NCBI GenBank assembly: GCA_000004985.1 | Contig: GG738890.1 | Origin: Naegleria gruberi | Lineage: Eukaryota | Direction: 5' to 3' (one strand) | Length of the DNA: 64,000 nt | Part shown: positions 1-61,514 of the stretch, piece by piece | Numbering within the stretch: position 1 is the stretch's first letter | Layout of the letters: each line of letters starts with the position of its first letter | Translations under genes and position numbers: made by a program | The notes under the pieces: generated by a model | Told to the model about the DNA's origin: nothing | What the model saw: only the letters and a program-made list of their open reading frames with translations | Database searches by the model: none

Positions 1-195
1 CCTATAAATTTCCATTCTGCTCTTTATCAATTCCATTCCGAAGCGATTTAACAGTTCATCAACTTGTTCTTCATCTCTAGAAACTGAGAGAAAATACAGT
101 AAATAATACCGATCAGCAGAGCCGAGAAATTTAATCATCTCATTGAAACAATCATGTTGCTCTGAATACAACCGAGCAAGATGACAACTTGACAT
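1..195 (-). CDS. Partial CDS for a hypothetical protein. The 5' part runs off the left edge and the C-terminal portion lies outside the window. The visible peptide begins MSSCHLARLYSEQHDCFNEMIKFLGSADRYYLLYFLSVSRDEEQVDELLNRFGMELIKSRMEIY.
   Basis: Minus-strand ATG at 195..193 sits in an A-rich context (aaaaaaATGTCA). The frame stays open for 65 codons to the window edge. It is not in the ORF track because it is truncated. I recognise no domain. Confidence 0.3.
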   Translation of the reverse strand, partial: MSSCHLARLYSEQHDCFNEMIKFLGSADRYYLLYFLSVSRDEEQVDELLNRFGMELIKSRMEIYR

Positions 196-571
196 TTTTT
201 TAAAAGGCTGCAATTTTTGAAAAAAAATAATATTAATAAATTCAAATGATATTCTTAATGAGATCTTGCTTATCAAAGAAAGATCTGAAATTTAATAGTC
301 TATTAGCACATTGAATGAGTGATGTGTTCTTTACAAAAATTCAATAAATAAGGTCAATGGCGTTCCACCCCCATAAAAGGATCTTCGTGCCTCCACTTTC
401 CTTTATAAAAATCTGCTATCTCTGTGGTGCCCTTAATAGCCGCATCAAAACTGCAGAGTTTTTGATGAAAAGTAAAAAAAAACGAAAACTTCCCTCCACT
501 TCTGTTTCTCTGAGGTTTTATTTAACTGTAAATTAGTGTAAAATTTGTTAGTAGGTAGAGAACACAATCAT

Positions 572-2032: not shown

Positions 2033-2059
2033 ATCTTAAACTCTTTATACAATATGAAT

Positions 2060-3037: not shown

Positions 3038-3686
3038 TTTCTCTACTAGTTTCGAATATTAGTGTATTTTCTGTAAGTAGTAGTAACAGAAAGGTTGATT
3101 ATTTTAAATATTGGAAAGTTGATTATACTAACAAGTGTGATGATGAGAATGATTTTGTTGTTGATGATGTATTTGTTTTGTAGTTGTTGATTAGAGGAGG
3201 ATTAAAAATGTATTCGAAACCAACAGGTGCGATTTGGAATTAGTTTCGAATAAAATCCAATGATACAAACCTATTAAATTTTGATGTTGTTTGTTGTGTT
3301 CGATTTTCAAATTGATACAACGGATATTAATGTTTTTGCTTGCTGATGGCAAGGAGACGTTTTTTCTTTTTTTTAAATTTAAATATTGAATGTCGCTTGT
3401 CATAGATTATCAGTAACGTTCATCAACACCATAAGAAAGGAAGTTGTTCTAATCCTGTTTGATGTTCGAAAACAGAAGAAATAAGAGAACTTAGAATAAA
3501 TAAATTTTATTCTCAAAATTTTACAAAATATTGAAATTTAGATAATAATTGACATCTAAATGCAAAATCAAAGATGTTCTTCCCTTTCGAGAATGTATGA
3601 ACCAAACTTTGACTTTTTTTCAAAAAAGTGAAAGAGCTCTTGCGAAGAAACACTTTCACTTTTGAATTATTTCATTCATTGATGAT

Positions 3687-18251: not shown

Positions 18252-18335
18252 GCTCATATAGCTCAGTGGTAGAGCATTTGTCTTATGAGAAATGAGGTTA
18301 GCAGATGGCCGAGGGTTCGACCCCCTCTATGAGCA
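18252..18335 (+). tRNA. Intron-containing tRNA of class I. The anticodon most consistent with the fold is UAU (Ile). A 12-nt intron lies at the canonical 37/38 position.
   Basis: Hand-folded cloverleaf: acceptor GCTCATA/TATGAGC with discriminator A; D arm GCTC-AGTGGTA-GAGC; anticodon stem TTTGT/GCAGA (two G-U pairs); loop CTTATG|A with U33; intron AGAAATGAGGTT; variable loop TGGCC; T arm GAGGG-TTCGACC-CCCTC (GTTCGA box B). A T7 run begins 8 nt downstream (Pol III terminator). The D arm and acceptor resemble eukaryotic tRNA-Ile(UAU), but position 37 reads G, so the isotype is tentative. Confidence 0.75.
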
Positions 18336-26376: not shown

Positions 26377-29300
26377 ATGGAGGAGAAGAAGGTGATTAAC
26401 AGTATTACCATTTCATCTTCGGACGCCAGCAATGAAGAGTTTCTAGATTATAAAAACCCTCATGAATCCAATTCGGTAGGAGGACATAACGAGAGTGGTA
26501 ACAATGTAAGAAATACTAATAATACTGTGGGAGCACCATCACACATTGGTGGTGGCTCATCAACAATATCATCGGGTCAACAATCATCAGCTCTCACTGG
26601 TAATAACAAATTTATAACTCTGAGAGAAACCCTATTTCAATTCCTAATATCACTTAATGTTAAAACGCCTAAGGTTAATTCCAAAAGAGGTGCCTTTATT
26701 AATTTTCTCTTATACTCATACCTATTGTATATAACTGTGATTATTTCTTCGAGCCCTAGCTTGATATCACAAGATCCAACAACCTCTACATCATCATCAT
26801 TGAATAGTTCTAATAGTATGTTATGGGGAGGTATTCCTGGATGGATTTGGAGAGTACTCTTCTATCCAATCAATCTAGGGGCTGAACATTATCCGTATGA
26901 GGCAATTGTTTCACTCTTGGCTATATTTGTGGCCATTGAGGGAATGGCCTTATTTTTCTTCTACTTGTTCAAAGTTTTTGTAGATAGGGGAAGTAAGGTC
27001 GTGCCTAGAATGAGGATAGCGCTTAGGATATTCTCTATGGTCGTATTATTCCTTTCTCCCTTCATTGTTTGGATACACTCCATTCCTATGGCTATCTATT
27101 CTTCAAATGGGTCATTGACTCACTTTCCAACCATTCAGTACAATTCTCCAATGAACATTGCAGCTATAGTCATTGGATGTGTTGGCATAGTACTAACAAT
27201 TATTATAACACTGATAGGATCCTATATTGTTGTGGAAACAATACCTCCTTCGTTGAGATATATCTTTTTTGCTGCTGAAAGAGTTTACCCTCTCACTGCC
27301 TTATTCATTTTCAACCAATTATCAGTTTTACTCACTGTAATATGTGATGTGAATTATGTAATTGTTGGCTCCTCTTTAAAAATAGTTCTTTCACTGCTAT
27401 TGATTGGAATTTTTGCTAATCGATTGCCATTCTTTAAGAGATTTGAAAATTCAATATTGATTGGAATTTTATGTGCCCGAGTTGTTGGATCGATTGGTCC
27501 AATAGTTAGTCATTCAATATTAGTGAATAGTAGTGGTCTTTCTTCTCAATTGGTGGAGACAATTGGCGGATCTGTTACTGGAGGAACATTGGTGTTAATG
27601 ATTGGATTTTTCATTCTCTCAACAACAATATTTCAAATTTACCTTATTTTGATGACAAGAGGTGTTAAAAAATCCCTCAGAGAATTATTCAACAACAGAA
27701 AAACCTCCAAAACAGAGAGTATCAAATATTACATGAACTGTGAGGAAACACATACTTTGAAAAAGTTGCTCACCTTTATGAAATTTTCCTTAAATAGTTT
27801 TGAAGAGAAGGAAGATTCAGATTTTGAGATTTGTAACAATTTAGTTCAGAGCTGTATGAATACCAAAGTTGCAATTGATGTTGAATATTTAATCTTATCA
27901 GGAATGTACTTTGGTTTCTTTGGCGATGCTGATGCTAATTTGACGAATTCTGTGATTTCGATTGGAATAATGACGAGAGGATTGAAGCACCAACCTAACA
28001 TTATTCAAAAATTCCACATTATTCTAAGAACGAGGGAGATTGAATCCATAGCCTCTCAATCCAATGCTTTCAACCTTGAACTCAAGCAACAAATGAGCTC
28101 TCTGGATAAGAAACAAGTTCTCATCATGTATTTTCACAGAGAATTCTTCAAAGAACTCTTGAGTGATAAGCCACACATTGTCAAATTGGAAAATATTAAC
28201 AGAACTGTCACTAAAATGGTGAATGACTGTGATAATAGATATAGAAATTTGGCAGCCATGCACCGAAACAACAAGACTCTGTTAAGATCATATGCTGTAT
28301 ATTTGGAAACCTTGCGTTTTGAAAAGGAGGCAGCTCAAGAATTATATGAAGAAGCCAATACTCTCGAGGAGGAAGAAGTCAAGAGAGGAAGAAGACCCAC
28401 TCACAAAACAAGTCGTTTCTTTGTCCCTCAAAAAGGTGGTTCTAGAAATAGAGTCTTTCCAGTAACAACCACTTCAGAAATGAGAAGGGATTTCACACCC
28501 GCTAATGATGACGTTCAAGAGATGGTTATTGTCGATGAAGAGAATTGGGATTCTGTCAGTGCCATGCAAGATGAAGGAACCAAGAAGGAGATTGTCTATC
28601 GAATGGCTCTCAATTCACCAGATGACAATAAGAATTACACAATTTGGTTTGCTCTATTTTGCTTTTTCACAGTCATTGTATTCGTTACTTGTTTGGCAAC
28701 TTCATTATCAATCAATGACGAAACTTCGAAGAGAGTTTCACTTCAGGAGACAGTTTGCAGTTTGAGTTCAATACCTTCATTGATGGCTCAACAAATGAGA
28801 GCCATTCTAGCCAAGTTCAATCACGCCTCACATCCAGAGGATTTGGTTGAATTGGAAATTATCAAGTCAGTTTCTAGAAAACAAATAGAATATCTAATAT
28901 CCAAGGTACAGCTTGTGCAATATGCTTCTACATCTGGGGCTTTTATTGAACAAGTTGTCAAGACCTATACGGATCAGAGTTGGGACTATTACATTCCCAC
29001 AAAACAATTTGATGAATTGGCAGATCCATTGTATGATATTGGTAACTCATCGGTTGGTCAATTTGTAGATATGATTATTGATTCAGGAAGTGATATTATT
29101 GATGGAATGGAGGATTTAACCACTTTCAATAAGACTCTATCCAATTATCCGTTTCTTCTCATCTTCCTTAATAGAAAGCACTTGACAGAGGCATTTGATT
29201 CATTTTGTGTAACTTTTATTGAAGGATCAAAATATAGCTCCCAACAAGGAAGTATAATTTTTCACAGCGTTTGTTGTGGAGTTTTGGGACTTTACCTTGT

Positions 29301-31653
29301 ATTCACCTCTATTTATCTTTTCGTGCTGAGAACAGAACTATTACAATTACACAGAATATTCAATAAGGTTTTCACAAAGGTTCCCAAAGATGAGACTGGT
29401 AAAATTTTCCATTCATTTGATAAGAAGGTCGAAGATGAAATTAGAAAAGAGAATAGAACTATTTTCACACCGCAGGCAATGTTCTTGTCTTTCACAATTG
29501 CCACTATTGTGGTAGTGGTTATTGTAACCATTTTGGTAATTGTAGAATTCAATATCAATGCTAGATCTGCAGAGTCGACCATGTTAGCAACCAATTCTAT
29601 GAATACCGTAGTATTAAGCTCCATGGTTGTTAATTTTAACTTGTTAGAAATGATATTAGAAAGTCATTTGTATCCAATACCACAAGAAACCATCAAGAAG
29701 ATTAATATTGAACAGCTGGCTATAGCGAACTTTGCTTGGAGAGCTATTTCTGTAGGAAGTGAATCGAATAATTACAAGAGTTCCATCTATGGAGTTTATG
29801 AAGAAATTGATCAGTTATTGAAAGGCAGTTGTGTGAATGCTACAGGCTCACCTGAAAGGCTGACAAACACTACTGAAATGATGGCAGTTCTAGATTGTAT
29901 GGGAATGGAAGATTTAGTAGATATGTTTGTTTCTCATGCTACTGAATTCAATCAAGATTTTGCTGTCTCACTTAACGAACCTGAAACTGAAGTGGAAAAT
30001 TACTTTTCACATATTTATTATGTTTCGATTTATCTTTCACAAAAATTATTTGAATTTATCAAGACATTTGTTTCACATTCAAAGAATGCATCAATTGTCA
30101 TTACATATGCATCTTGCTTTGGTGGATTGGGTATTGTTTTGGTTCTATTCTACTTTTCCTATACATTCCTTCAAAACTTTTGGGATGAAAAGCATCATGC
30201 TAGAACAATGCTCAACTATGTTAAGTGGAATATTTTGGAACAGAATAGAGAGCTTAATCAATTTGTTATTTCACACGAAATTGGTGGATTTACCTATTCC
30301 ACTGTTGAAAAGATTGCAAATAAGGTAAAGAAAGGGATGAGTAGTGAAGAGGAGGAGGCAGAAGATCCAATGTCAATGACCATCTCAATTCTAAATGCAA
30401 CCACAGATGGTAGTGTTATTTGTAATCATGAAGGTGCTATTCAAGTGTTCAACAATGCAGCTGAAGATATGTTTGGATGTAGAAAGAGTCAAGTTGTTGG
30501 TCTCGATATTTCAAATCTGTTCTCTATGGAGGATCAACCAAGAGTTTTGAAATTTATTACCTTAATGAATTCATCCAGCAATGTAGGAGGAGAGGTATTG
30601 GAAATAGATTGTCAGAGAAGAAACCAGACTATTTTCCCTGCCAAAGTCACTCTATGTGTCAGCTACTATAATAAGAAACCAATTTTTTCATGTTTCATTA
30701 GAGATGTTACAATGGAAAAGAAGCAAAATGCACTGATTCAAGAAGAAAAGAAGAAGAGTGAAGAACTCTTGTTGAATATTCTTCCAAAACCAGTTGCTCA
30801 TAGATTGATGGAAGGTGAAAGAAATATTTCAGAAAAGTTTGGAGATGTTTCTGTTTTCTTTTCAGATATGGTTGGATTTACCAAATTTTCATCCCAGATG
30901 GAAGCTTCTGATTTGGTCACCATGTTAAATCAAATTGTGGAGGGATTTGATTCTCTCACTGATAGGCATGGATTGGATAAGATTAAAACCATTGGTGATG
31001 CCTTCTTTGCTGTAGGAGGTTTATATGCTTCAAAATCGAGCGACCATCCTGAGAGAGCTTTGAAATTCTCAATTGATGTTTTTGGATTTTTGAATCAATT
31101 TAATAAGAATGAAAAGAGGAATATTAATATTCGTATTGGACTTCATACCGGACCGTGTGGTAAGTAGTAACATGTTTATTCATGAATACTGAAAATTAAA
31201 GTTGGTGGAGTGATTGGTAAACTCAAATTTGCCTACGATTTGTGGGGTGATACAATCAATACTGCCTCAAGAATGGAATCTACAGGTGTCCCGGGAAGGA
31301 TTCACATGAGCAGATCAACCTATGAGCGTGTTCATGACTTGGGATTCAAGTTTGAGGAAAGAGACGAAATTATGGTAAAAGGAAAAGGCAAGATGAAAAC
31401 CTATTTACTTCACAGCAAGCACCACTTGCCAGCTTTGGAAGAATATGACATTACAGTTAGTACAGACGCTATTCCAGTGGAGAATAATGGATTGGAAGCA
31501 GCAAGATTAAATATTCCAAAAGTGAAAAGCATGTCTGGTCTCTCCCAAATATCAAACTTGGACGACTATATGGTTTCAAATAGGTCTGAAACAAGAAGTT
31601 ATGGGTCCATGAGCCAAAGAGGAAGCGCTGAAGATTTTAGTAAATATCAATAA
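26377..31653 (+). CDS. Polytopic membrane adenylyl-cyclase-like protein with about 12 predicted TM segments, a PAS domain and one class III nucleotidyl cyclase catalytic domain. The CDS is join(26377..31159, 31202..31653), about 1745 aa.
   Basis: The cyclase domain reads LLNILPKPVAHRLMEG...VFFSDMVGFT...KIKTIGDAFF...IGLHTGPC|VGGVIGKLKFAYDLWGDTINTASRMES...KGKGKMKTYLL. Both metal-binding Asp residues are present (FSDMV, IGDAF). The substrate-specifying Lys (KIKTIGD) and Asp (YDLWGD) indicate ATP, not the Glu/Cys pair of guanylyl cyclases. The Asn/Arg transition-state pair is in NTASR. PAS-like region: ISILNATTDGSVICNHEGAIQVFNNAAEDMFGCRKSQVVGLDISNLF. The 42-nt intron GTAAGTAG...TTAAAG restores the GPC-VGGVIG motif. 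Hydrophobic segments of 18-25 aa form one block of about 8 and a later block of about 4. Confidence 0.8.
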
Positions 31654-34170: not shown

Positions 34171-37100
34171 TTAGAAGGAAAGTCTATACAATACATAGCA
34201 AACGCGATTCACAAATGTTCCAATAAAATCTTGTTCTTGATCATTTGGTATTCTTGGATCTTGAATAGTGACACCCTCAATCTTTGGTGAGCTGGATCGT
34301 TGTTGTAATTCTAGTAGTAATTCTGGCTCTTGTAACAATCTCTTCTTACACAAATAACAAGAGATAGTGTTGGAGAGGATTGAATAGTTAATGTGAAGTA
34401 AGTAATTTTGGCCTGTTGCACTACTGTCTGGAGTGATAATCAAGTGTTGAGCAGTGCCATCCTTTTTGAAAATACTCCCAGCCCTTTCTCCTCCATAAAT
34501 ATTCCACAACTCTGAGATGACATCATTCCAAGGTATATAGTTGGCCTCAAATATGGACAATGTAAAATCATAATCGGTAATAGGTGTCTTGATCCAAAGG
34601 GCGTCCAAGTCATTGAAGAGATTTTCACTAATCTTGAAATTGAGAGCCATTTCCCACAAAATATCAAGCTTGAATGAATCCTTAACGCTGTGGAGAAGGT
34701 TGAGAAGTTTTCTCTCATATTGTTGAGCCATTTGAGTGACAATCTTGTACATGTTTTCTTTGGAACCTTCAACATCAGAATCATACGGATGTCTATTGGT
34801 AGCATCTGCAAAGACAATGTACATTGTGAGATTCATTGTAGAGTTTTCATACATTTCTTCAGACATTGGACTTGAAGGAGAGATGTGAGAAGTTGAATTT
34901 TCAATACTCTTAGTGACAATGACAGAGTATGAGTAGTCTGCCTCATCATGTGAAATATAGGTATCCAAAATAAAGCACTCCTTACTCTTTTGGTTGAACT
35001 TGACACGATATCTTTCAGAATTCTTGCAAATATATTCAAAGAAGAAATGGAAAGGATCATTCAATATTTCTCTTCTCTCCAAATTTCCACTAGCCTTTAT
35101 GTTGGCCTTTTCTCTCATAATATCGGCAATGTCCTTAGAATTTTCAAATACGATATGATGAGAGTGGAGAATATTTCTGGTGTGAGGAGGTGGCTTTGGA
35201 TAGAATTGAGCAAAGTCCTTCAACAAGCACATAAAACTGAGAGAAGGAGGAAAGCCAGAATAGTCTGTAGTGAGGTAATTCAAAAAGTTTCTCAAATGGA
35301 AATCATAAGAAAATGAATTCATGTGGAGTGAGTGTTTGAATTGACTGACTTTCTTCAAGAATTCTCCTCTGGAAGAAGAACGATTATGCATCAATCCTGA
35401 AGGTTTTTGAGACACTGTATCGGATACATAGACATTCAAGTAGGCATAAATACTGTCCAATCCAAGCTCCAAAAACAAGACACCTTCATCCATTTGTTTT
35501 TGGAAATAAATAGTTGTTGGTTGAAGTTTGATAATTTGGTTACCAACGACTTGAACCAATGGAGTAGGTTGTTTTGGTTGCTTTTCTCTTGTGATTGAAA
35601 TTTGAAGGTTTGGTTCTGCTCCAGGAGTTGAAGGAATATCGTTCTGCTCGGATGGATTCAAAAACACATCAGAAATATCCAAAGATTTGACATACTCAAC
35701 ATATTCGCTAAGGAAAGATTCAAATACCTTTCTGTGGTATCCAATTTCACGTAAATTATTATTTTGGGTATCTTCAAAGGATGAGGTATTACCAAGATCC
35801 ATCTGTTGAATAATTGCTGCAGAGCTTGAAGATACAAATGAGGATGGATCGAAAAGTATTCTTCTTAAAGGATTGAACAAGAGAGGTACTCTACAGAAGT
35901 GAATCAATCTCGAAGTATTCTTAATGAGTTGGAAATCTTTCGATTTGAGACTAGTAGAGTAGGATTTGTTATTCCAAAATCCATAAATTTTAGAAACTTG
36001 TTGTTGTTCCACCTTCTTCTTGTAATTTTGGTGGACAATGTGCTTAAAGTGGAGACCATGAATTAAGAGCTGATCTTTCTTTGATTCTACTGGGGTTCTT
36101 CTACTCAAATATCTGCCAGGATTCTTATCTAGATCATAAATTCCTTTCAGCAAGGAACCAAATTGATTCTTGCTGGATTGTGGCTTCTTTTCCTTTCTGA
36201 TAGGTTTGGCAACTTCACTCTTTACCTCAACTGTTGCTACTTGTATTGGTGTTGTGGTTTGAGGTGTTTTGAATCTATTGTAAATTTGTCCTCTAACATC
36301 AGGCATTTGTTTTGGTGCATTCATGGTGGATGGAGTGGAAGGTGTTGTAGTACTTCTCCTGATTGTGGTTGTAGTTTTAGGATCTACTGGTGCATTTTGT
36401 TTGTTATAAATCAAGAGGTCAATATTGTTGAAGGCGAATTGAACTTCCTTTTGTGGCTTTCCACTTTGACTTGGATTTAAAGGATTTGATGGAATTGAAA
36501 CCAAGTTACTAGAGTGTGAGTGATAGAATAAACCAAGTTTTTGATGGAGAATGCTATTCAATAAGTGAGCTCTACATCTCAACCATGAGACAGTTTGATG
36601 CAAGTGATATTTGAATTTTTCAAACTGAGGAGACTTCCAGTTGTAAGCTATTACTTGGAGCTCAGCACTTGTGAGGATAATGACAATACAACATTTTCTA
36701 TTATATTTGAATGAATTTCTATAGTTAAATCCTTCCAATGATATTATATCACCAATCTTGATATTTTCACCAATATTAATAACTCTATCATTATTTTGCA
36801 CAAGTATATTACCGGCTATCATGGCAAAACAAACATTGTTAGAATCAATCAAGTGGTACTTTTCTGTGAAATCTTCACTTCTAGAGTATTTGACAAAGTT
36901 TTGCCTTCCGTCTGTGCTGACAAATGTAACTGGTCTAAATTTAAAGCTGTATACAGAGAGTAAGTTGTAGAGATCTCCAATAAAACGTCCCATTTCCCAT
37001 AATGGTAAGAAAATAGATGCTCTGTGTTCAGTTAGTGTTGGAGAATCAATTCTGGAGGCTTTGATGGCTTGAGTTTGTAATCTAGCTAAAAAGTATCTGT

Positions 37101-40100
37101 TGAATCCTTCCAAACTCAAAGGGTTTGTAAATAGTCCACATTCCACAATATAATCAATAACAGATTGGTTAACAGTTTGAACAATCTTTTCTAAAAGGGA
37201 AGGAATATCAACTTCTCCCTTCTTCCAAAACTCGAACAGTATCTTTCCATTCTCACTTGACAATGACTTGGAAGATACTTCTGTTGTTGTCCCTACCTCG
37301 TCATCCTCATCTTCAGAGTCAGAGTTACTGCCTTCCTTCTTTAAAATGGGAGCACCAAAATCTGTGTAAGGAATGTTTGCAGGTTCTTCTTGCAAGTTTC
37401 CAAGCTGAGAGACACCTGTCAAATCGCAAACATATGACTCCTTCATAGGTGGGAAAACTGTAACCATCTCTCCATTTTGATTCAGTAATGTTAATTGTAC
37501 ACAAGCTATACCTCTGCAATTCACTGTTGAGGTCATGGCTCTTGAGAAGGTATTCTGTGTGACAGAGTTGAACAAGAAGGAAAAGTCCCAAGCTTTAAAT
37601 ACCATATCATCATCCTCGTCCTCGGTAAATGACATGTAGGCCTGAGGATTGTTACTATCAGTAGAGTCATCACTACTAGATAAATAGAGTTGATTCATAA
37701 AGGTCAACATGTTATTCCTGAGGAATAGCATGAACAAGAGCTTGTTGTTAATAAACTTTGGAATATTGATTAACACACTTTTTTGTGGTTTTTGTAGTAA
37801 TGGTCTAATAAACTCCAAATCTTCAACTGTAACTTTGAATTGTCTGTTTCTCAATAATAAATTGGAAATAATATTCATAGTGAGAGCAGATAATTTTCCT
37901 TCAATAAGATTTCTCAATTGTGCAGTAATTTCCGCACTTGGAGAATAGACACCATAGACTTCCAAAACTATGGAGGATGTCTTATTCTTCAAATCCAATT
38001 CAGCATACAAATATTGACCCATACTTGACAAGGAAAGTGAGTAATCTTTCAATTTCGTCTTGAATTCTTGGTCGGATTGTTCAGGTTGTTCTGGTATTTC
38101 AGGAGACTTTTCAGTGGTTGGTGACAATACATCTACCTGCTTGTTACCATCAACTAGTTGCAAATAGAAAACTCTACCACTTCTTTCCTTGTAGACAAAC
38201 ATTTCACTTCTGTTAGCAACAATGAACGGATTAAAAACTGCTTGATTCAAGTGATTAATAGCCATAGCAGTAGTCAAACGACTATGAAGAGGGAAAGAAA
38301 TTTCATATGTCTTTCTACAAGCAAAGTCTCCTTCCTTGAATTTTTCTGGATTTGGTTTTTCATTGTCCTTTCTGATAAGTTTCTTGTCTAGAGTATTGAT
38401 TTCATTTTGAAGAGCCTTCTTATCCTTTTCCTTTCTGAAGGGTAATAGGAGGGAGCTACAAAGTCTGGTATCATGTAAATTGGAAAGAAGTAACAGAGTA
38501 TTCACTCTCTTACAAATAACACTGATTGCCTTGAAAACAACACTAACCACATCATTGGCATGTTTAGTGGATAATGCAGTAGGTGAATAAAACAGCATTG
38601 ACATGGATTTTTTGTTTTCCACCCTTAATATAATCCAGAAGGGTAATTCCAGACAAGATCTTTCCATTTCAATATCGTTATCAAAAATAACCATTTCCAA
38701 ATCATCCAATTCCTTCTTGTAGAGATTGTACTTGTTATTATCAGAGGTTGCATCTTGCTCACAAGCTTTATCAAAATCCTCAAATATTGTATGCTTGGAA
38801 CAACAATTTCTCTTTCTAAAGTAAAGAATGTAGTGATTTTCAATATTCTTAAAGACCAAGTTCTTACATTTGGCCATTTCTTGGTGGAATAATTTCAATC
38901 CTTCAACAGGGTCGATGAAAAAGAGAGGGATTGAGTGTTTTTGGTAACAGGTGGTTGGCAACTTCTCTATATTATCAAAAACCTTCTTGATTGAATATGA
39001 AGTGATTGGATGAGTTTTAAGGAGAGCATTCAAAATTTCTTTGGAAATAAGAGCTTGGAGACGCTTATTAGTTCTAGACATTATTCTTCGAATGTGTCTT
39101 GGCAGGTATCCCTTGTCGAGGTAAGGTGCTGCTTCATCTGTTGGTACATCAGCTGATGAATCCTCTTCGACATCGAATACACTTCTTGCATAGGCAAACT
39201 GACTTTCAGTTACATGATTTCTGAACATCATGAGTAAGTCCTTCTTGGCTGGTTCGAATCCATTCACAGCCGCAAAGTGTTTATCAGGTGGAAGAGTAAT
39301 ACAATAGAGTCTGAGAGAAGTCTTTACAGAGTTTAAAGAGTTAATCCAGTCCAAATCCATACTAGAACGAGTGAAACTCTCAGGTTCCTCTTCTTCATCT
39401 TCACTATCTTCGTCCTTTGAAAATGCAGATAATACTTGAGCAAATTCACCCTTGCTAGACATGATTGTACTGGCAATTTTGTCAATTGGCAGTTTCTTAA
39501 TAGGTACTTTGATAGTGGAACTTATATTCTCCGAGTCATTATCAAGTTCATTCCAACTATCGTGATCCCTCTCAATTGGTGATAAAACACATTCCATTCT
39601 CATGAACACTGGGATGGTAGAATTTTCCAACTCTACAGAGTTGAATGTATCAGTCAGTGAAGAGCCAGAACTATCTGTTAATGAATCAGAAGCATGATCT
39701 GAGTGAGGATGAGTATCTGCTCTTGCTCCAGCAGATATACTTGTTGAGATGGAGTGAATTTCATCCTCTTCGCTATGGAAACTGCTAATTTCATCATCAG
39801 AAGCTTCAGCGTCAAAATCTTCATTCTCAATTTCTTCTAAATGGTCAAAGCTCTTGGCACTATTCTTCTTCTTGAGAATTTTTGGATTAGTAGTAGTGGT
39901 TGTCTGATTCTTAGTTTTTGGTATCGAACTTTCTCTCAAATAGTAATGATACTTAGTTCCTCTGATATCATCAAAGTACTTTTCAATTATAGCCTTGAAG
40001 GAGGCTGCCATTGATTCGCATGGACTTATTCCATTTTCTCCCTTCTCGAAGAAGTAACTTCTTGCCAATAGTATTGCTTCAAAGAATTCAGACAAGTCAA

Positions 40101-43100
40101 TTTCCTCCCTATATTCGTAACAAGATTCAACAGCAGATACAATATTTTCTCTATCAACCAAAAGTTTTTGGTTAAGATGCTTATAAACTCCATAAGATAA
40201 ACTGTAGGAGTGAAGATTAGTAACAAAATCACAATATGAAGCAGAAGAAGAAAATGCTTGCTCCTCCTCGTGCATTAGCATTGGGTGTGCCTTCACATTT
40301 AGAGGTCCATTCTTGGAACATACTAACTTTTCAATTGCCTCATTACGTTTCAGATTCTCGATGTTTAAAAGTTGGTCCTCGTTACATTCACATACAATAA
40401 TGTTGAAGTTTAACTCCTCTCCATTCACTTGAGCAGGAACGATTGTTAAAATAAAGTCCTTTTGTCTTTCAGAGCCAACAGTTTCAAACACTCTTGCAAA
40501 ACATCTTGATTTGGTATTTAAATTGAGTGGAATCCTATCAATGTTCAATTCCACATCATTGATATTACTAAGGAATTTGATGAGTCTGTCATAGAGTAAA
40601 ATATTATTCTTCTTGCATAATTCCGACTCTGATTCACTTGAAATTTTAAAGACCTTGAATTGAAGGTCTTGCTTCTCAGATCTATCAACAATACCCTTTA
40701 GGTTGAAAGGGGTCGGAAGATTATTCTTTTCAGCTTGGAATACGGCAATATTGTTATTATTTCCTTTCCCGGATTTACATGCCGTAACAACACATTCAAA
40801 GGTTGAAAATAGAGAAATAATTTGCAAATCCAAATTATAAAACCAATTATCACACAAATCAGTGTAAAATTGGGAAGAATCAGAGAGAGCACCACTCGAA
40901 TGGGTCACATAACCTGATTGTGGCTCAATCCAAAGTTCTGTAATCAGCTTCTTTTCTTTCTTGAGGATGTGAATACAATAAAAGACCAACAATTTAGAAA
41001 GATATTCCGCATCGTTGAAGGCGTTTCTTTTCATCATTTCCAATTCCTTCACAAATACAATAGATTGTTTTGAAGAAACTAAAGAGAAACCTTCACTAAA
41101 TCTCTGAGAGAAAATGGAGGACAATATTCCAGCAACATTCAATCTGCCACCAACAGACCATACCCAATTTTTGTGCTTCATATATGAAGTATAGTGTGGA
41201 GGAGCAGAGTAGAGTGATTGATTATACTGTGATTCATCCTCTCTACAGTTGGGCAGCCTGGAAGCAATATCTGGGAAGTGTTCACTCACATAGAAATTGG
41301 CTGAAATTCCTTTCTGATGGAATGTCCTTGTTATCTTTTCTTTGAATTGTCGAATAATTCTAGAAATTGTGAAGGAAGAAACATTAAAGAATTGGAATTG
41401 AATCTCGATTGGTGAATTGAAATTACTCAGCAGTTTCAAAAGGCAAAAACCAGAAGAAACACAGCTATCCTTCTCTTCCATGCTTAATAGAGAAGTATCA
41501 TCTACAGACTCGTACAGGTAACAGGTGGAATCCTGCTCTGAGAGGAATAAAATGTAAAAATCGTCTGATATTTTTGTTGAAGACCAACTGTTGTCACAAA
41601 GGGACCTCAGTATTGAAATATGATTTTGAACAGTGGTAATTTCCGTTGTTCCTGATTGAATTTGGGTCAAAATCTTTTGAATTATCGAATCTGATCTGTG
41701 TAAGTGTTGCTCGTCATTGTGAGGTGAGAGCATCAAAGTTTGTCTATCAAATAAAAAGTCTTTCTCATGTTCAAAATTAATATTTGAAAGGTCTAACTTT
41801 CTGATAGGTGTTCTGTTGGTGCATGAGCAATTGTCAGCAAGATTATGATATTGCTCCAGCAGCACATCCTCGATATTGATCTTTTGAATAAAGTCCTGCA
41901 CTGATTTGAAGAAGGACAACTCCTTATTTTTCTTTTTCAAGTACATCTTGAATCTTTCTTGATTGGATTTGTGCATAAATGCTGTGATTGTCACCACAAT
42001 TTTAAAATTTTTTAGTTTGGTGAGTGCAAAATTAGTAAAATTACTACTCGACAGCATTTGTAAATCTTGTTCTTCATTGAGAACATCTGTTCTTTCTATT
42101 TGCATTCTGTAAATAATTTCAATATTTCTCCTATAAAGTAAACTCATTTTGATGGATTTGTAATCGAGTTTTTCCTCTTCTGCCTTGAACTTGGTAAGAG
42201 AGTCTGTGTTTGTTGCGTATTTCAAGTCCATAATTTTGAAACCTTGTTTTGCCCTAGTTTTCAAGATGGAATCCACATTGGTCATATTCAAACTGTAGGC
42301 AAGGATTTCCGATTCACAATAACCCTTCTTTACATCCTTTTTTATATCGGTCTGTGTGGTGAAAACACTCCCTTCTCCTGCAGAAATGATTAAACTCTCA
42401 TTCTCAGCTGCCAATACAGGTGTTGGCCTGAATAGCAATGCATGTTGGAGTGCATTAGTCTTTTTTCTATCATTTTCTGATGGAACTTCTTCAATATACT
42501 CATAATCAATATAGTAACCATCCACACAAGCGATAAATGACTCTACCAATTCAGAATCAGGCAGATAACTATATAAGTAAGCCCCTTGGGATTGATTGGT
42601 GATATTAATTGTTGCAAAACTAATATCCTTTTGATTAATGCTCAGTATTGTTTCAGGAGTCAAATCAGAAATATTGAAAACGTTATCACTAATGAGAAGG
42701 AAAATTGGGCATGCATCTTTTGGTAAAAAGTCAAAAGCCAGTATCGAATCAGAAATGTAAGTATTGAATTTAGAATCAGAAGTCTCCGAAAGACTTTTAA
42801 GAGAAGGTCTAAGAGCATTTGAAGCCATATTTTCAGTTTCGCATAAATTTTGATAAACCTTTCCTAGAACCTCCACAAGATTTGTCGAAGTAATATGATA
42901 ATCTTGAAAGAGACAATAAACTGGTCTTCCAGCCATTCCAATAGCAATACAAGAAACATGAAGCTCTGGTAAAATTTCCTCCGAATAATTTGGTACAATA
43001 ATTGGTTGTGTTAAATGTGTTAAAATATTCGATATTGTCTTGAATACTCTGTCGAATAATACTTCTCCTGTTGTTGTATCAATTGCAAGCATAGAAGGAC

Positions 43101-44136
43101 TAATATCCACAGTAATAACAATTCCGTATTTTGAATAAATAGTATGAACCAATGAAGTTGGTAAAAGTTCTATTCCTAAATCCTCAGTAAATTCCTCTGT
43201 TGATGCAGTCGAACTAACAGTCTCAATGGTATCAAGATGTCCATGAAATTGGTTAAACTTTGGTGATGATTCATTTCCATTATAGAAATTTGGTGGCAGA
43301 ATAACAACACCACCTCCCTGTTGATTACTTCCTCCATAGTGAATCTGATCAATACTAATACTCCTCACAATATTTGAATTTGTGGCTTGATGTAATTGAT
43401 CAATACTCATACTCCTAGGAATAGAATCATGAGTAAATGGAAATTGATTTAAATAGGATTCATCAGAAATTGTTGTAGTTGGTGAATTTTGCATTGAATT
43501 TCTATCCATAGAATATTCTGAAGAGTGCATAAATCCACTCGTAAATGTTGTAGATTCATCCATAGAAGATGAATTATGATGGTGATGATGAGAATCAACA
43601 TGTTGATGGTTTTTCAAAAATCTATTCTTCCTAACAGATAAATCTTTACAAGTCTTGATAGAGACCGAAATAACCTGAATGTTTTTGCTATTATTATTGG
43701 ATAGGGAAGGAGAAGTAGGTGAATTTGCTGTTGTTGTTGTCGACAACATTGAAGAACGAGGAGAAGAGGTTACTTGCTCATGTGCAGCACCATCATGATT
43801 TTTCGTTATTAATTGATTAATATTAGCATGAAGATGATTCAATTGCCATACCAATCTCTCGGATTTTCTAAAGAGTGAATAGTCTTGTGATTTGAGAAAA
43901 ACATGTTTTGCTCCAACATTACGTCCAATATTATTACTATGAACCATATGAATAGAGGAAGAAGATAATGCTCTCTTGGACCGATGATGAAGCACTGGTC
44001 CTCCTCCATTCTCATCATGAAAATCATCCTGTGAGAGTGGAAGAAAGTCTTCCGAAGTGATCAACTCTAAAGGTTGTTGTTGTGTAGAGGGTGAGGTTGG
44101 AGAGGTCGTTAGCATAACATGATGACCGCTCCACAT
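34171..44136 (-). CDS. Giant 3321-aa protein, a putative SZT2 (KICSTOR complex) homolog
   Basis: It is a single uninterrupted 9966-nt ORF with ATG at 44136. The N-terminal segment ...HVFLKSQDYSLFRKSERLVWQLNHLH... matches my recollection of the vertebrate SZT2 N-terminus (...[25 protein letters not shown]...), and the size is similar (about 3300-3400 aa). I see no other recognisable domains: no chorein, BEACH, PIKK or AAA signatures. Confidence 0.5.
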   Translation of the reverse strand: MWSGHHVMLTTSPTSPSTQQQPLELITSEDFLPLSQDDFHDENGGGPVLHHRSKRALSSSSIHMVHSNNIGRNVGAKHVFLKSQDYSLFRKSERLVWQLNHLHANINQLITKNHDGAAHEQVTSSPRSSMLSTTTTANSPTSPSLSNNNSKNIQVISVSIKTCKDLSVRKNRFLKNHQHVDSHHHHHNSSSMDESTTFTSGFMHSSEYSMDRNSMQNSPTTTISDESYLNQFPFTHDSIPRSMSIDQLHQATNSNIVRSISIDQIHYGGSNQQGGGVVILPPNFYNGNESSPKFNQFHGHLDTIETVSSTASTEEFTEDLGIELLPTSLVHTIYSKYGIVITVDISPSMLAIDTTTGEVLFDRVFKTISNILTHLTQPIIVPNYSEEILPELHVSCIAIGMAGRPVYCLFQDYHITSTNLVEVLGKVYQNLCETENMASNALRPSLKSLSETSDSKFNTYISDSILAFDFLPKDACPIFLLISDNVFNISDLTPETILSINQKDISFATINITNQSQGAYLYSYLPDSELVESFIACVDGYYIDYEYIEEVPSENDRKKTNALQHALLFRPTPVLAAENESLIISAGEGSVFTTQTDIKKDVKKGYCESEILAYSLNMTNVDSILKTRAKQGFKIMDLKYATNTDSLTKFKAEEEKLDYKSIKMSLLYRRNIEIIYRMQIERTDVLNEEQDLQMLSSSNFTNFALTKLKNFKIVVTITAFMHKSNQERFKMYLKKKNKELSFFKSVQDFIQKINIEDVLLEQYHNLADNCSCTNRTPIRKLDLSNINFEHEKDFLFDRQTLMLSPHNDEQHLHRSDSIIQKILTQIQSGTTEITTVQNHISILRSLCDNSWSSTKISDDFYILFLSEQDSTCYLYESVDDTSLLSMEEKDSCVSSGFCLLKLLSNFNSPIEIQFQFFNVSSFTISRIIRQFKEKITRTFHQKGISANFYVSEHFPDIASRLPNCREDESQYNQSLYSAPPHYTSYMKHKNWVWSVGGRLNVAGILSSIFSQRFSEGFSLVSSKQSIVFVKELEMMKRNAFNDAEYLSKLLVFYCIHILKKEKKLITELWIEPQSGYVTHSSGALSDSSQFYTDLCDNWFYNLDLQIISLFSTFECVVTACKSGKGNNNNIAVFQAEKNNLPTPFNLKGIVDRSEKQDLQFKVFKISSESESELCKKNNILLYDRLIKFLSNINDVELNIDRIPLNLNTKSRCFARVFETVGSERQKDFILTIVPAQVNGEELNFNIIVCECNEDQLLNIENLKRNEAIEKLVCSKNGPLNVKAHPMLMHEEEQAFSSSASYCDFVTNLHSYSLSYGVYKHLNQKLLVDRENIVSAVESCYEYREEIDLSEFFEAILLARSYFFEKGENGISPCESMAASFKAIIEKYFDDIRGTKYHYYLRESSIPKTKNQTTTTTNPKILKKKNSAKSFDHLEEIENEDFDAEASDDEISSFHSEEDEIHSISTSISAGARADTHPHSDHASDSLTDSSGSSLTDTFNSVELENSTIPVFMRMECVLSPIERDHDSWNELDNDSENISSTIKVPIKKLPIDKIASTIMSSKGEFAQVLSAFSKDEDSEDEEEEPESFTRSSMDLDWINSLNSVKTSLRLYCITLPPDKHFAAVNGFEPAKKDLLMMFRNHVTESQFAYARSVFDVEEDSSADVPTDEAAPYLDKGYLPRHIRRIMSRTNKRLQALISKEILNALLKTHPITSYSIKKVFDNIEKLPTTCYQKHSIPLFFIDPVEGLKLFHQEMAKCKNLVFKNIENHYILYFRKRNCCSKHTIFEDFDKACEQDATSDNNKYNLYKKELDDLEMVIFDNDIEMERSCLELPFWIILRVENKKSMSMLFYSPTALSTKHANDVVSVVFKAISVICKRVNTLLLLSNLHDTRLCSSLLLPFRKEKDKKALQNEINTLDKKLIRKDNEKPNPEKFKEGDFACRKTYEISFPLHSRLTTAMAINHLNQAVFNPFIVANRSEMFVYKERSGRVFYLQLVDGNKQVDVLSPTTEKSPEIPEQPEQSDQEFKTKLKDYSLSLSSMGQYLYAELDLKNKTSSIVLEVYGVYSPSAEITAQLRNLIEGKLSALTMNIISNLLLRNRQFKVTVEDLEFIRPLLQKPQKSVLINIPKFINNKLLFMLFLRNNMLTFMNQLYLSSSDDSTDSNNPQAYMSFTEDEDDDMVFKAWDFSFLFNSVTQNTFSRAMTSTVNCRGIACVQLTLLNQNGEMVTVFPPMKESYVCDLTGVSQLGNLQEEPANIPYTDFGAPILKKEGSNSDSEDEDDEVGTTTEVSSKSLSSENGKILFEFWKKGEVDIPSLLEKIVQTVNQSVIDYIVECGLFTNPLSLEGFNRYFLARLQTQAIKASRIDSPTLTEHRASIFLPLWEMGRFIGDLYNLLSVYSFKFRPVTFVSTDGRQNFVKYSRSEDFTEKYHLIDSNNVCFAMIAGNILVQNNDRVINIGENIKIGDIISLEGFNYRNSFKYNRKCCIVIILTSAELQVIAYNWKSPQFEKFKYHLHQTVSWLRCRAHLLNSILHQKLGLFYHSHSSNLVSIPSNPLNPSQSGKPQKEVQFAFNNIDLLIYNKQNAPVDPKTTTTIRRSTTTPSTPSTMNAPKQMPDVRGQIYNRFKTPQTTTPIQVATVEVKSEVAKPIRKEKKPQSSKNQFGSLLKGIYDLDKNPGRYLSRRTPVESKKDQLLIHGLHFKHIVHQNYKKKVEQQQVSKIYGFWNNKSYSTSLKSKDFQLIKNTSRLIHFCRVPLLFNPLRRILFDPSSFVSSSSAAIIQQMDLGNTSSFEDTQNNNLREIGYHRKVFESFLSEYVEYVKSLDISDVFLNPSEQNDIPSTPGAEPNLQISITREKQPKQPTPLVQVVGNQIIKLQPTTIYFQKQMDEGVLFLELGLDSIYAYLNVYVSDTVSQKPSGLMHNRSSSRGEFLKKVSQFKHSLHMNSFSYDFHLRNFLNYLTTDYSGFPPSLSFMCLLKDFAQFYPKPPPHTRNILHSHHIVFENSKDIADIMREKANIKASGNLERREILNDPFHFFFEYICKNSERYRVKFNQKSKECFILDTYISHDEADYSYSVIVTKSIENSTSHISPSSPMSEEMYENSTMNLTMYIVFADATNRHPYDSDVEGSKENMYKIVTQMAQQYERKLLNLLHSVKDSFKLDILWEMALNFKISENLFNDLDALWIKTPITDYDFTLSIFEANYIPWNDVISELWNIYGGERAGSIFKKDGTAQHLIITPDSSATGQNYLLHINYSILSNTISCYLCKKRLLQEPELLLELQQRSSSPKIEGVTIQDPRIPNDQEQDFIGTFVNRVCYVLYRLSF

Positions 44137-44325: not shown

Positions 44326-45729
44326 TTAATGGAAATCTAAGAGGGATTGATTGGCCACTGCTCCATTTCTATGAGCACGAGGGGTTACTGCAGAAATTTT
44401 AACCCTCTTACTATCAAATTTTTGTTTGGCTCTGTCCACCAATTGACACATTAATTTGAAATTTTCAACAACAATCATTTGATAAATTTCTTCATCTAAA
44501 TGATGTTTCTCAAAGTGAGTAAAGAATGTTGGAAAGTCATGACTATCACCAATTCCAAGCAATTCCATAATGGACTTGTTTTCAACCACATACCACTCAT
44601 AGAAGAGTTTCAACAATTTCACTCTTTTAATTCTACTTTGATTGATTGGATCTTCTTTAACTTCAGGAATATTAGCTTCTGTTCCTGGTTGAGAGCCTTC
44701 TTTCTTATCTTCTAATTGAGAAATATCAATAATTGTGCTATCTTTCTTAATGTATTGATTGAAAAGATAGAGATGGTCAATTTGGCTCAAACAGAAAACT
44801 GGTGGAGTTTGAGCTTGTCTATTGTACATATTGACTAAATACTGATAGAAACTCATCACCGAGTTCCTTTCTTGACTTACAAGTTCTTGTGTGTCTTTCA
44901 TTGGAATTGGGACGAAAATTGCATCAATTTTCAATTCCTCTTCCTTTTCTTTGAGATGAGCAAAAAAGTGTTCCAATCTCTCCTTCATAACTCGTGTGAA
45001 TAGAGCTGGGCAGTCAATGAGAGAAATTCTTGAGAAATCAGACTGATTAATTCGCTCAATGGAAGCCAAGTGATTGGTGTAAGATCTCAAATCTTCTTCA
45101 TCTTCACTGACACTCCAATTTTCGTTAGAGTTTTGTAAATGAGAAGAATTACCAACAATGAATGGATTGGTGAGATCTGAGTTAAGATTCTTGCACGTCA
45201 TGTTCAAAAGAGTGGACTTTCCACTTCCAGTTTCAGATAGAGGAATGAATCTGAATTGGTAATCTTTTTCTGGGAAATTTTTCAAACTTTCAATAAGTTT
45301 AGTTCTCTGCGCATCAACAGAACCGTCATCACTCAACAATGCCTTAGTAGCAGCTGAGTAACTTTTCGTAGTCAACTCTCTAGTTGACAAACAAGTTGTC
45401 TCTGCACTGAGTTCCAATCTGAAGCTTGCGCAATTAGGTGGAGCAATGACAAGAAAACGACGTGTATTAATTGTTTGGTTTTCATGCTCTCCAATCTCAG
45501 TGACCTCATCCTCACCAGTGAGAGTGAAGATTTTCTGAGTGACCTTTGATTGTGGAAAGTATACTTTCAAGGTCATTGTTGGTAAACTGGAAGAATCAAA
45601 TAAATCTCTTGGGAGTGTAACTTCCCAAAGGCAATTACCGAGTTTTTTGATGGATAGCTCCTTAAGGGTTGGTTCTTCTGGCTGGTTGGTTTGAAATTGA
45701 TGGTATGAAGAAGATTGCTTGTTTCCCAT
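44326..45729 (-). CDS. P-loop NTPase of unknown family with an N-terminal myristoylation motif
   Basis: Walker A is LSETGSGKSTLLN. A candidate Walker B/G3 is ISLIDCPALF. The ATG at 45729..45727 (MGNKQSS) has Gly2 and Ser6 (N-myristoylation consensus) and an A-rich upstream context. The ORF-track N-terminal 32 aa are translated leader. Confidence 0.55.
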   Translation of the reverse strand: MGNKQSSSYHQFQTNQPEEPTLKELSIKKLGNCLWEVTLPRDLFDSSSLPTMTLKVYFPQSKVTQKIFTLTGEDEVTEIGEHENQTINTRRFLVIAPPNCASFRLELSAETTCLSTRELTTKSYSAATKALLSDDGSVDAQRTKLIESLKNFPEKDYQFRFIPLSETGSGKSTLLNMTCKNLNSDLTNPFIVGNSSHLQNSNENWSVSEDEEDLRSYTNHLASIERINQSDFSRISLIDCPALFTRVMKERLEHFFAHLKEKEEELKIDAIFVPIPMKDTQELVSQERNSVMSFYQYLVNMYNRQAQTPPVFCLSQIDHLYLFNQYIKKDSTIIDISQLEDKKEGSQPGTEANIPEVKEDPINQSRIKRVKLLKLFYEWYVVENKSIMELLGIGDSHDFPTFFTHFEKHHLDEEIYQMIVVENFKLMCQLVDRAKQKFDSKRVKISAVTPRAHRNGAVANQSLLDFH

Positions 45730-46274
45730 GTTCTTGTTTTCTTGTTTTTTTTGTTTGTTATTGAGATTTGTGGAGTTCAGACTGGTTTCTCTAATGGAGA
45801 TGGAAATGGCTAGTATTTGCTTCACGTTTTTGTTGTTCCTAATTGAGGTATGTCGCTTCTTAATGGGGTTTTCATTATCGTGCCGATAGATTTTTTCATC
45901 ACGTTTGCGCTTAATTAGTTTCTTTCATTGACTACTATTAAATTTTCATTTGTTTTACGATTTATTCAATTGAGGAATATTAAGGAATTATTTATTGCAA
46001 CAAACATTTTAAAGTTTCAAATGCACTTTTCCAATTTAAAAGAAATGACTGTTTAATAGGAAAGTTATTAACAAACGAAATTTATCTAAAAATTGATAAC
46101 AACAAATTTCCAAATCACGTTTCGAAAAATAAACGAACATTTAACATGTTCCAATAATTCCCTAGATGATTGACTACATCAGATTGAGATTTGTCTTTCA
46201 AATTTAAGAAAATTACCAATGTTATAAAGATTTATTCATTATAAACTCTTTTGTAAGATTCCATTTGAAAGTAA

Positions 46275-61429: not shown

Positions 61430-61514
61430 TGCTCATAGAGGGGGTCGAACCCTCGGCCATCTGCTAACCTCATTTTCTCATAAGACAAATGCTCTACCAC
61501 TGAGCTATATGAGC
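61430..61514 (-). tRNA. Second copy of the intron-containing tRNA (anticodon UAU-like), with a 13-nt intron
   Basis: Its reverse complement is identical to the 18252..18335 tRNA over both exons. The only difference is one extra A in the intron (GAGAAAATGAGG versus GAGAAATGAGG). The 3' flank AGTTCAAATTTTT is nearly identical to the first copy (AGCTCAAATTTTTTT). The 5' flanks are unrelated. Confidence 0.75.

Follow-up and report, generated by a model that had tools for sequence, protein, structure and literature searches.

A full-length SZT2 family protein predicted in Naegleria gruberi, with a probable role on the GATOR1/Rag/TORC1 axis

By sequence comparison, a long open reading frame (ORF) of Naegleria gruberi encodes a full-length member of the SZT2 family, in which the conserved blocks follow one another in the same order as in the human protein. 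The ORF product is almost certainly the N. gruberi SZT2 orthologue, and we put at roughly 0.72 the probability of the composite reading that it is this orthologue and also has a GATOR1/Rag/TORC1 role. SZT2 is the ~380-kDa scaffold of KICSTOR (SZT2, KPTN, ITFG2 and KICS2) and enables growth signalling to be shut off upon nutrient loss, while GATOR1 (Nprl2/Nprl3/DEPDC5) is the GAP complex for the Rag GTPases. The family itself is already known; the Naegleria member is previously unreported. Its ORF was found in the window, i.e., the whole 64,000-nt stretch of DNA that was analysed:

34171..44136, minus strand: complete ORF of the putative SZT2 orthologue, 9966 nt, 3321 codons plus stop

The ORF starts at 44136 and ends at 34171 with no interruption, which bears out the original prediction of an unbroken 9966-nt frame encoding 3321 residues and adds the strand, which had not been stated. 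Its product is 100% identical to N. gruberi NAEGRDRAFT_58984, a public model annotated as "hypothetical protein" that comprises 3314 residues because it begins at the second Met (residue 8 of the ORF, base 44115). This identity also corrects the host, which had been taken for an amoebozoan: N. gruberi belongs to the Heterolobosea, within Discoba. Amorphea is the clade that includes animals, fungi and Amoebozoa. Since Discoba is a supergroup outside Amorphea, the corrected host makes the evolutionary point of the original prediction stronger.

The identification is carried by similarity along most of the protein. When the Protein Data Bank (PDB) was searched with phmmer, human SZT2 was the sole match (E = 4e-53), in eight same-order stretches, and a profile built from heterolobosean and amoebozoan proteins matched human SZT2 in the PDB with E = 7e-153. 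The profile stretches correspond to human residues 12-44, 78-442, 788-1009, 1287-1346, 1950-2258, 2344-2400, 2646-2706 and 2782-3381, thus spanning ~12 to ~3381 of 3432. Similarly, BLASTP aligned the protein with a spider SZT2 in six same-order HSPs (residues 315-2999 versus 87-3285, E down to 1e-28). Identity to animal SZT2 proteins is ~22-26% in conserved columns. No Pfam family matched the ORF protein at E <= 1, and the PDB sequence searches (phmmer and profile) matched no family other than SZT2; together with Foldseek on the C-terminal half (see below), these searches gave no better match to another giant-protein family. The assignment to SZT2, first made from a short motif, is thus upheld well beyond that motif. 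The stretches concerned, in the order of the protein, are as follows:

43828..43884, minus strand: N-terminal SZT2 motif DYSLFRKSERLVWQLNHLH, residues 85-103, with a one-residue indel relative to human SZT2
43189..43827, minus strand: low-complexity linker rich in Ser/Thr/Asn/His, residues 104-316, from the sequence
41956..43188, minus strand: N-terminal conserved region, residues 317-727, matching human SZT2 residues 78-442
43093..43107, minus strand: D-I-S-P-S, a MIDAS-like D-x-S-x-S, residues 344-348
37669..38553, minus strand: central conserved block, residues 1862-2156, matching human SZT2 residues 1950-2258
36514..36696, minus strand: short conserved block, residues 2481-2541, matching human SZT2 residues 2647-2707
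35164..36120, minus strand: C-terminal conserved block, residues 2673-2991, matching human SZT2 residues ~2773-3094

The strongest matches fall in three of these regions. Within the N-terminal conserved region, residues 324-454 were matched by phmmer with an i-E of 3.4e-08, and by the profile with 129 bits (i-E 7.6e-37). The central block scored 59 bits with phmmer and 140 bits (i-E 2.9e-40) with the profile, and was also recovered by BLASTP to other SZT2 proteins. The C-terminal block scored 54 bits with phmmer, while the profile match reaches farther towards the C-terminus (147.8 bits, human residues 2782-3381); the human C-terminal fragment 25ge_C was matched at E = 1.2e-23. Finally, the short block scored 16 bits with phmmer and 33.6 bits with the profile.

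As for the N-terminal motif from which the identification started, it is present as predicted, except for its spacing: the ORF reads DY-x3-R-x3-RL-x-W-x-LNHLH, one residue more than the x2 proposed between R and RL. The resemblance to the N-terminus of human SZT2 proved correct when compared with the SZT2 chain in the PDB (human residues 23-40). The motif is the best local alignment between residues 1-323 of the ORF and human residues 12-79, with a BLOSUM62 score of 54 against a shuffle mean of 26 (sd 4.3), a score reached by one of 5000 shuffles. It is strictly conserved in five heterolobosean proteins, and is the first of the eight same-order stretches in the profile alignment. A 63-residue query around the motif did not retrieve SZT2 from the PDB, and a heterolobosean motif HMM gave no score on the N-termini of spider or nematode SZT2. 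By itself, the motif is weak evidence and would not be diagnostic of SZT2.

Fold models are consistent with the sequence matches. The AlphaFold2 models were generated from shallow alignments of 7-8 sequences, are of low confidence (mean pLDDT 43.5 for the C-terminal half and 45.6 for the N-terminal model), and were used for local fold matches only. With the C-terminal half, Foldseek returned six significant matches (E <= 0.001), all of them SZT2 chains (E = 3e-23 to 2e-9), the next match having only E = 0.13. For the N-terminal model, in which residues 19-197 have a pLDDT of 50-86, four KICSTOR-GATOR1 entries gave the best matches, in each case to SZT2 (E = 6e-13 to 4e-11). Next came vWA domains, including integrin I domains, Ku, TFIIH p44, Rpn10 and TRAP; for the integrin, Ku, TFIIH and Rpn10 domains, E was 1e-06 to 1e-04. 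The SZT2 chain in 9v0j (292 modelled residues) superposes onto the Naegleria N-terminal domain with a TMt of 0.49 over 211 columns. Global TM-scores to solved SZT2 structures are low (0.2-0.4), and the fold matches therefore owe something to local sequence similarity. The first ~180 residues of the N-terminal conserved region thus model, at low confidence, as a domain of the vWA fold that includes a D-x-S-x-S motif. The D, S and S of this motif do not vary in SZT2 proteins ranging from Naegleria to spider and nematode (human has DLSPS), and neither does the aspartate of an (S/T)-D in the alignment from Naegleria to nematode. Pfam vWA models run on this domain stayed below significance (best E = 0.19-0.24, in single members).

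Could the ORF be spurious or foreign, i.e., a chance ORF, a contaminant or a recent transfer from an opisthokont or amoebozoan? A single 10-kb exon is unusual and the family has a patchy distribution, both of which would fit such an origin. Against it, full-length orthologues with 54-64% identity are found in N. lovaniensis, N. fowleri, Willaertia magna and a JGI metagenome protein, and Percolomonas has an SZT2 orthologue as well, so that the gene is present in three Naegleria species and two further genera. The full-length heterolobosean orthologues indicate that the gene is real and under selection. Moreover, the GC content of the ORF (0.34-0.36) is like that of its flanks, and its neighbours in the window are typical eukaryotic genes. 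In a rough neighbour-joining tree of 751 columns, which carries no support values, heteroloboseans group together, with most Amoebozoa, chytrids and animals each apart. We have rejected chance, contamination and recent horizontal transfer on these four grounds, and consider such an origin extremely improbable.

What might this protein do? The assignment of SZT2 modules to partners was read from the titles and chain composition of PDB entries rather than from interfaces. The entry 9v0j is entitled "GATOR1-KICSTOR complex," and 9o5d ("KICSTOR-GATOR1-SAMTOR") contains a 1349-residue N-terminal SZT2 construct, while 25ge and 25gf combine a 1245-residue C-terminal fragment with kaptin, ITFG2 and KICS2. 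The C-terminal block of the Naegleria protein falls within that fragment. If Naegleria SZT2 acts as in mammals, its N-terminal module would dock GATOR1, and its C-terminal module would carry KPTN-ITFG2 and KICS2, provided that Naegleria has these. GATOR1 would then inactivate RagA-type GTPases, turning TORC1 off in nutrient starvation. By analogy with the mammalian system, we consider it rather likely that Naegleria SZT2 acts on the GATOR1/Rag/TORC1 axis.

A different job for a diverged scaffold of this family, unconnected with Rag and TORC1 (e.g., another lysosomal or membrane-trafficking role), would be in keeping with the ~22-26% identity to animal SZT2, the large lineage-specific low-complexity insert at residues 104-316, the lack of a Pfam-annotated domain, and a functional knowledge of SZT2 that is confined to animals. 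However, all the conserved blocks of human SZT2 are kept in order, including the modules associated with GATOR1 and with the accessory subunits, and the pathway partners are plausibly present in Naegleria. Rag and GATOR1 are near-universal in a survey that took in N. gruberi, where GATOR1 is implied by the text (PMC5745459); another report describes GATOR1 as pan-eukaryotic (PMC12290439); and an N. gruberi Sestrin has GATOR2-binding motifs (PMC11429811). A role away from TORC1 is, in our opinion, improbable.

That the predicted TORC1 role would be exercised within a four-subunit KICSTOR is less likely than not, and we advance this part only tentatively, by analogy. In the rival scenario, the GATOR1/TORC1 role is the same and the composition of the complex alone differs: SZT2 would link GATOR1 and GATOR2 on its own, as a stand-alone bridge, with neither KPTN, ITFG2 and KICS2 nor a vertebrate-type KICSTOR. 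SZT2 is reportedly the sole KICSTOR component encoded by Caenorhabditis elegans (PMC8534245), and its presence therefore does not entail that of the whole complex; KICSTOR components are also patchy across early-diverging fungi (PMC11836306). No KPTN, ITFG2 or KICS2 gene is present in the 64,000-nt window. Human accessory-subunit queries were verified against the PDB, and the search with KICS2 gave 237 matches, of which the 120 listed are all from vertebrates, with no protist among them; since vertebrates fill that list, it has little bearing on protists. Conversely, the region bound by KPTN, ITFG2 and KICS2 in the human protein is among the best conserved in Naegleria, as seen from the C-terminal scores above, which makes a partnerless SZT2 less expected. 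We regard the stand-alone bridge as unlikely.

Beyond Naegleria, an exhaustive HMMER search with a trimmed profile yielded 1434 representative clusters, and the named SZT2 members come from Heterolobosea, Amoebozoa, Ichthyosporea, chytrid fungi, animals, one stramenopile and Rhodelphis. Reviews describe KICSTOR as restricted to metazoans or specific to mammals or vertebrates (PMC8534245, PMC10957897). The original prediction had cited this view, which is indeed that of the reviews but is overstated, given that KICSTOR was reported in non-Dikarya fungi in 2025 (PMC11836306) and that UniRef already calls an amoebozoan protein, Planoprotostelium fungivorum PRP81777.1, "Protein SZT2." This distribution indicates that SZT2 is ancient and often lost. 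Since there are members in Discoba, Amoebozoa, Opisthokonta, a stramenopile and Rhodelphis, SZT2 alone quite probably dates to the last common ancestor of eukaryotes. That the complete four-subunit GATOR1-KICSTOR architecture was already there, and was then repeatedly lost, for example in Dikarya and Drosophila, is a more doubtful proposition. If true, free-living protists such as Naegleria or Dictyostelium would still control TORC1 by a complete KICSTOR.

These findings are of moderate evolutionary interest. Loss of SZT2 leads to epileptic encephalopathy in humans, and the distribution of the family suggests tractable non-animal systems for SZT2, Dictyostelium foremost. They also offer a functional name for a protein that is "hypothetical" across the genus Naegleria, including the pathogen N. 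fowleri. Reviews ask why vertebrates "acquired" so large a complex (PMC8534245, PMC10957897). This question is turned around by the occurrence of a full-length SZT2 in Naegleria and of related proteins in Amoebozoa, a stramenopile and Rhodelphis, and becomes one about the ancestral role of SZT2 with GATOR1.

How does the Naegleria protein compare with known systems? Human and other vertebrate SZT2 structures (PDB 9v0j, 9v6e, 9van, 9o5a, 9o5d, 9o5e, 25ge and 25gf) provide the closest reference. The two proteins are of similar size (3432 residues in human, 3321 in Naegleria), share one order of blocks all the way from the N-terminal motif nearly to the C-terminus, and are both predicted to contain an N-terminal domain of the vWA fold that bears D-x-S-x-S and (S/T)-D. 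They differ by the one-residue indel within the motif and, more conspicuously, by the ~210-residue low-complexity insert that separates the motif from the vWA-like domain in Naegleria, where the matching gap in human SZT2 is only ~40 residues. This linker is little conserved among heteroloboseans, with 8-19% invariant columns over residues 1-300. When compared with the vWA domains of integrin I, Ku70/80, TFIIH p44/Ssl1 and Rpn10, the Naegleria domain has D-x-S-x-S and (S/T)-D at the same positions, although its site is a predicted one and only MIDAS-like.

The amoebozoan homologues (Polysphondylium violaceum KAF2077134.1 and P. fungivorum PRP81777.1), on which no paper was found in the literature searched, belong to the same family in a different supergroup, and outscore animal proteins against the Naegleria sequence (summed BLASTP bits of ~400-500 versus ~300). 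An amoebozoan protein of this kind is what the original prediction had supposed the ORF to encode. Among early-diverging fungi, the homologues of Dinochytrium (P0006) and Quaeritorhiza (P0008) have the central and C-terminal blocks in common with the Naegleria protein, and their gene models are longer (5103-5326 residues versus 3321). The Dinochytrium model looks like a fusion with a HEATR1 gene. Non-metazoan SZT2 in such fungi already spoke against a "vertebrate-specific" protein; these fungal homologues are opisthokont, whereas the Naegleria protein carries the family into Discoba.

The SZT2-like gene occupies a single uninterrupted frame, in exact agreement with the coordinates originally predicted, and its GC content (0.34-0.36 across the ORF) is the same as that of its flanks.

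44136 down to 34171, minus strand: SZT2-like ORF, 3321 codons plus stop
aa 85-103 of the ORF, minus strand: SZT2 N-terminal motif, DYSLFRKSERLVWQLNHLH

Naegleria gruberi NAEGRDRAFT_58984, annotated as a "hypothetical protein," matches the ORF product at 100% identity; its 3314-aa model begins at the second Met of the ORF. Since full-length orthologues with 54-64% identity exist in N. lovaniensis, N. fowleri and Willaertia magna, as well as in a JGI metagenome protein, the ORF is, judging by sequence conservation, a real gene under selection. The host, which had been described as an amoebozoan, is a heterolobosean (Discoba).

As for the identity of the protein, a Pfam search of the ORF product matched no family. 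When it was compared by phmmer with all PDB chains, human SZT2 (3432 residues) was the sole match (E = 4e-53), aligning over eight stretches in the same order. A full-length profile built from five heterolobosean proteins, Percolomonas and three amoebozoan proteins (alignment A4) matched PDB SZT2, again the sole family, with E = 7e-153, its stretches falling on human residues 12-44 (the motif), 78-442, 788-1009, 1287-1346, 1950-2258, 2344-2400, 2646-2706 and 2782-3381. Similarly, BLASTP against spider SZT2 gave six HSPs in the same order (ORF aa 315-2999 versus 87-3285). The original identification as SZT2 therefore survives, because similarity reaches far past the motif and a better-fitting giant-protein family was not found.

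The motif that first suggested this identity (DY-x3-R-x3-RL-x-W-x-LNHLH) is present, with a spacing one residue longer than proposed (R-x3-RL, not R-x2-RL), and the human N-terminal signature on which the comparison was based agrees with the PDB SZT2 chain. When ORF residues 1-323 are aligned locally with human SZT2 12-79, the top-scoring segment is precisely the motif, and its score of 54 is reached by one of 5000 shuffles (mean 26, sd 4.3). A 63-aa query around the motif found no SZT2 match in the PDB, and a heterolobosean motif profile did not score spider and nematode SZT2. The motif alone is not diagnostic of SZT2.

Among heteroloboseans, aa 1-300 are poorly conserved, and conservation is highest from about aa 1300 on. 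Between the motif and the first conserved domain lie ~210 aa of low-complexity linker (aa 104-316), whereas the corresponding gap in human SZT2 is about 40 residues. This first domain (aa ~320-520) contains an invariant D-x-S-x-S (DISPS at aa 344-348, DLSPS in human) and, from Naegleria to nematode, an invariant Asp in ISD/ITDG, all signature positions of vWA/MIDAS domains. Pfam vWA models reached no better than E ~0.2 on this domain, in single members. An AlphaFold2 model of aa 317-727 has a low mean pLDDT (45.6), with values of 50-86 over model residues 19-197, where β and α elements alternate. Its top four Foldseek matches in the PDB are SZT2 chains of KICSTOR-GATOR1 entries (E = 6e-13 to 4e-11), followed by integrin I domains, Ku70/80, TFIIH p44, Rpn10, TRAP and ANTXR1, all of which are vWA folds. 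A second model, of aa 1859-2997, has similarly low confidence (pLDDT 43.5), and the PDB chains that it matches significantly are all SZT2, six in number (E = 3e-23 to 2e-9; next, E = 0.13). TM-scores are low (0.1-0.4), and these matches support local homology rather than an independent global superposition.

A profile of aa 1859-2997 and relatives (alignment A2), run exhaustively with HMMER against 1.84 billion representative proteins, yielded 1434 clusters at E <= 0.001, 833 at E <= 1e-10 and 329 at E <= 1e-30. About 40 of the best 150 of the 1434 are nearer Heterolobosea than animal or fungal references. Exact look-ups identified these members:

Heterolobosea: Percolomonas cosmopolitus
Amoebozoa: Polysphondylium violaceum, Synstelium, Cavostelium, Soliformovum, Balamuthia and Planoprotostelium fungivorum (the last already named "Protein SZT2" in UniRef by automatic annotation)
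Ichthyosporea: Chromosphaera perkinsii
Stramenopiles (SAR): Mucochytrium quahogii
NCBI lineage without supergroup: Rhodelphis marinus, usually placed as sister to red algae

For stramenopiles and for Rhodelphis, membership is in each case based on a single species, and the data are mostly transcriptomic. In a rough neighbor-joining tree (751 columns, of which Rhodelphis covers 313; no support values), heteroloboseans, most amoebozoans, chytrids and animals form separate groups, a pattern that fits vertical descent over recent transfer. Very probably, SZT2 dates back as far as the major eukaryote supergroups, with many losses since.

Some retrieved relatives have unusual lengths or names. The 5326-aa Dinochytrium kinnereticum protein (P0006) carries the annotation "HEAT repeat-containing protein 1" and HEATR1-type Pfam domains, while its SZT2-like part spans residues ~3690-5210; two adjacent genes were probably fused in this one gene model. 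In the Balamuthia SZT2 cluster, the 4071-aa B. mandrillaris KAL6075545.1 (P0280) bears the name "Vir like m6A methyltransferase associated," probably through mis-annotation or another fused gene model. Four SZT2-family proteins from metagenome and Logan contigs (P0195, P0219, P0225 and P0227; 4545-5529 aa) are much longer than SZT2 and closest to heterolobosean and amoebozoan members; their sources are eukaryotes in environmental assemblies.

A coarse map of SZT2 modules to partners can be read from the composition of PDB entries. In 9v0j ("GATOR1-KICSTOR complex"), the modeled SZT2 chain of 292 residues can be superposed over 211 columns (TMt 0.49) on the N-terminal domain from Naegleria; in 9o5d ("KICSTOR-GATOR1-SAMTOR complex"), the SZT2 construct is the N-terminal 1349 aa; and 25ge and 25gf contain a C-terminal SZT2 fragment of 1245 aa with kaptin, ITFG2 and KICS2. 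In the profile comparison with human SZT2, the N-terminal (129 bits) and C-terminal (148 bits) modules rank with the best-conserved regions of Naegleria SZT2. From this map and conservation, we infer that the mechanism is most likely the mammalian one: Naegleria SZT2 would scaffold GATOR1, whose GAP activity toward RagA-type GTPases would then switch TORC1 off when nutrients are scarce. The pathway partners are plausible in Naegleria from the literature. Rag and GATOR1 are near-universal and were present in LECA according to a survey including N. gruberi, being reported missing from green algae/land plants, extremely diverged species (e.g., Giardia) and intracellular parasites (e.g., Plasmodium and Encephalitozoon) (PMC5745459). 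GATOR1 is described as pan-eukaryotic (PMC12290439), and a Sestrin bearing GATOR2-binding motifs is reported from N. gruberi (PMC11429811).

Human KICS2, ITFG2 and KPTN queries were matched to PDB chains first; among the matches listed, KICS2 gave vertebrate sequences only. An SZT2-only arrangement in Naegleria, without the other KICSTOR subunits, is a serious alternative because SZT2 is reportedly the sole KICSTOR subunit in C. elegans (PMC8534245). No further KICSTOR gene and no GATOR gene was found in the 64-kb window, an absence that is uninformative in a eukaryote. Other features noted in the window:

10865-14422, minus strand: 1185-aa ORF, no Pfam match
18252-18335, plus strand: tRNA-Ile(TAT) (ARAGORN)
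19895-21571, plus strand: 558-aa ORF, histidine-kinase-type ATPase domain and response-regulator receiver
26377-31167, plus strand: 1596-aa ORF, TmcB-type TPR repeats, PAS domain and adenylate/guanylate cyclase catalytic domain
44326-45825, minus strand: 499-aa ORF, no Pfam match, directly upstream of the SZT2 gene on the same strand
49601-51769, minus strand: 722-aa ORF, CH domain, spectrin repeat and EF-hands including a Ca2+-insensitive EF-hand
54226-56535, minus strand: 769-aa ORF, no Pfam match
61430-61514, minus strand: tRNA-Ile(TAT) (ARAGORN)

At 84-85 nt, above standard tRNA length, both tRNA genes may contain an intron. The 722-aa ORF has an alpha-actinin-like architecture, and the 558-aa ORF looks like a hybrid two-component sensor. 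Since the cyclase match is cut at the end of the 1596-aa ORF, an intron or further exon probably follows.

Our literature search found no link between KICSTOR and Naegleria, nothing relevant on SZT2 and Naegleria together, and no description of KICSTOR or SZT2 in Dictyostelium. Reviews regard KICSTOR as mammal- or vertebrate-specific (PMC8534245, PMC10957897), and a 2025 paper, whose taxa are opisthokonts with Dictyostelium as outgroup for the species tree, also finds it in non-Dikarya fungi (PMC11836306). Because the SZT2 family is known, the N. gruberi protein is already public though unnamed, and no paper was found on KICSTOR in Naegleria, Naegleria SZT2 is an unreported member of the family, the value of which is evolutionary.
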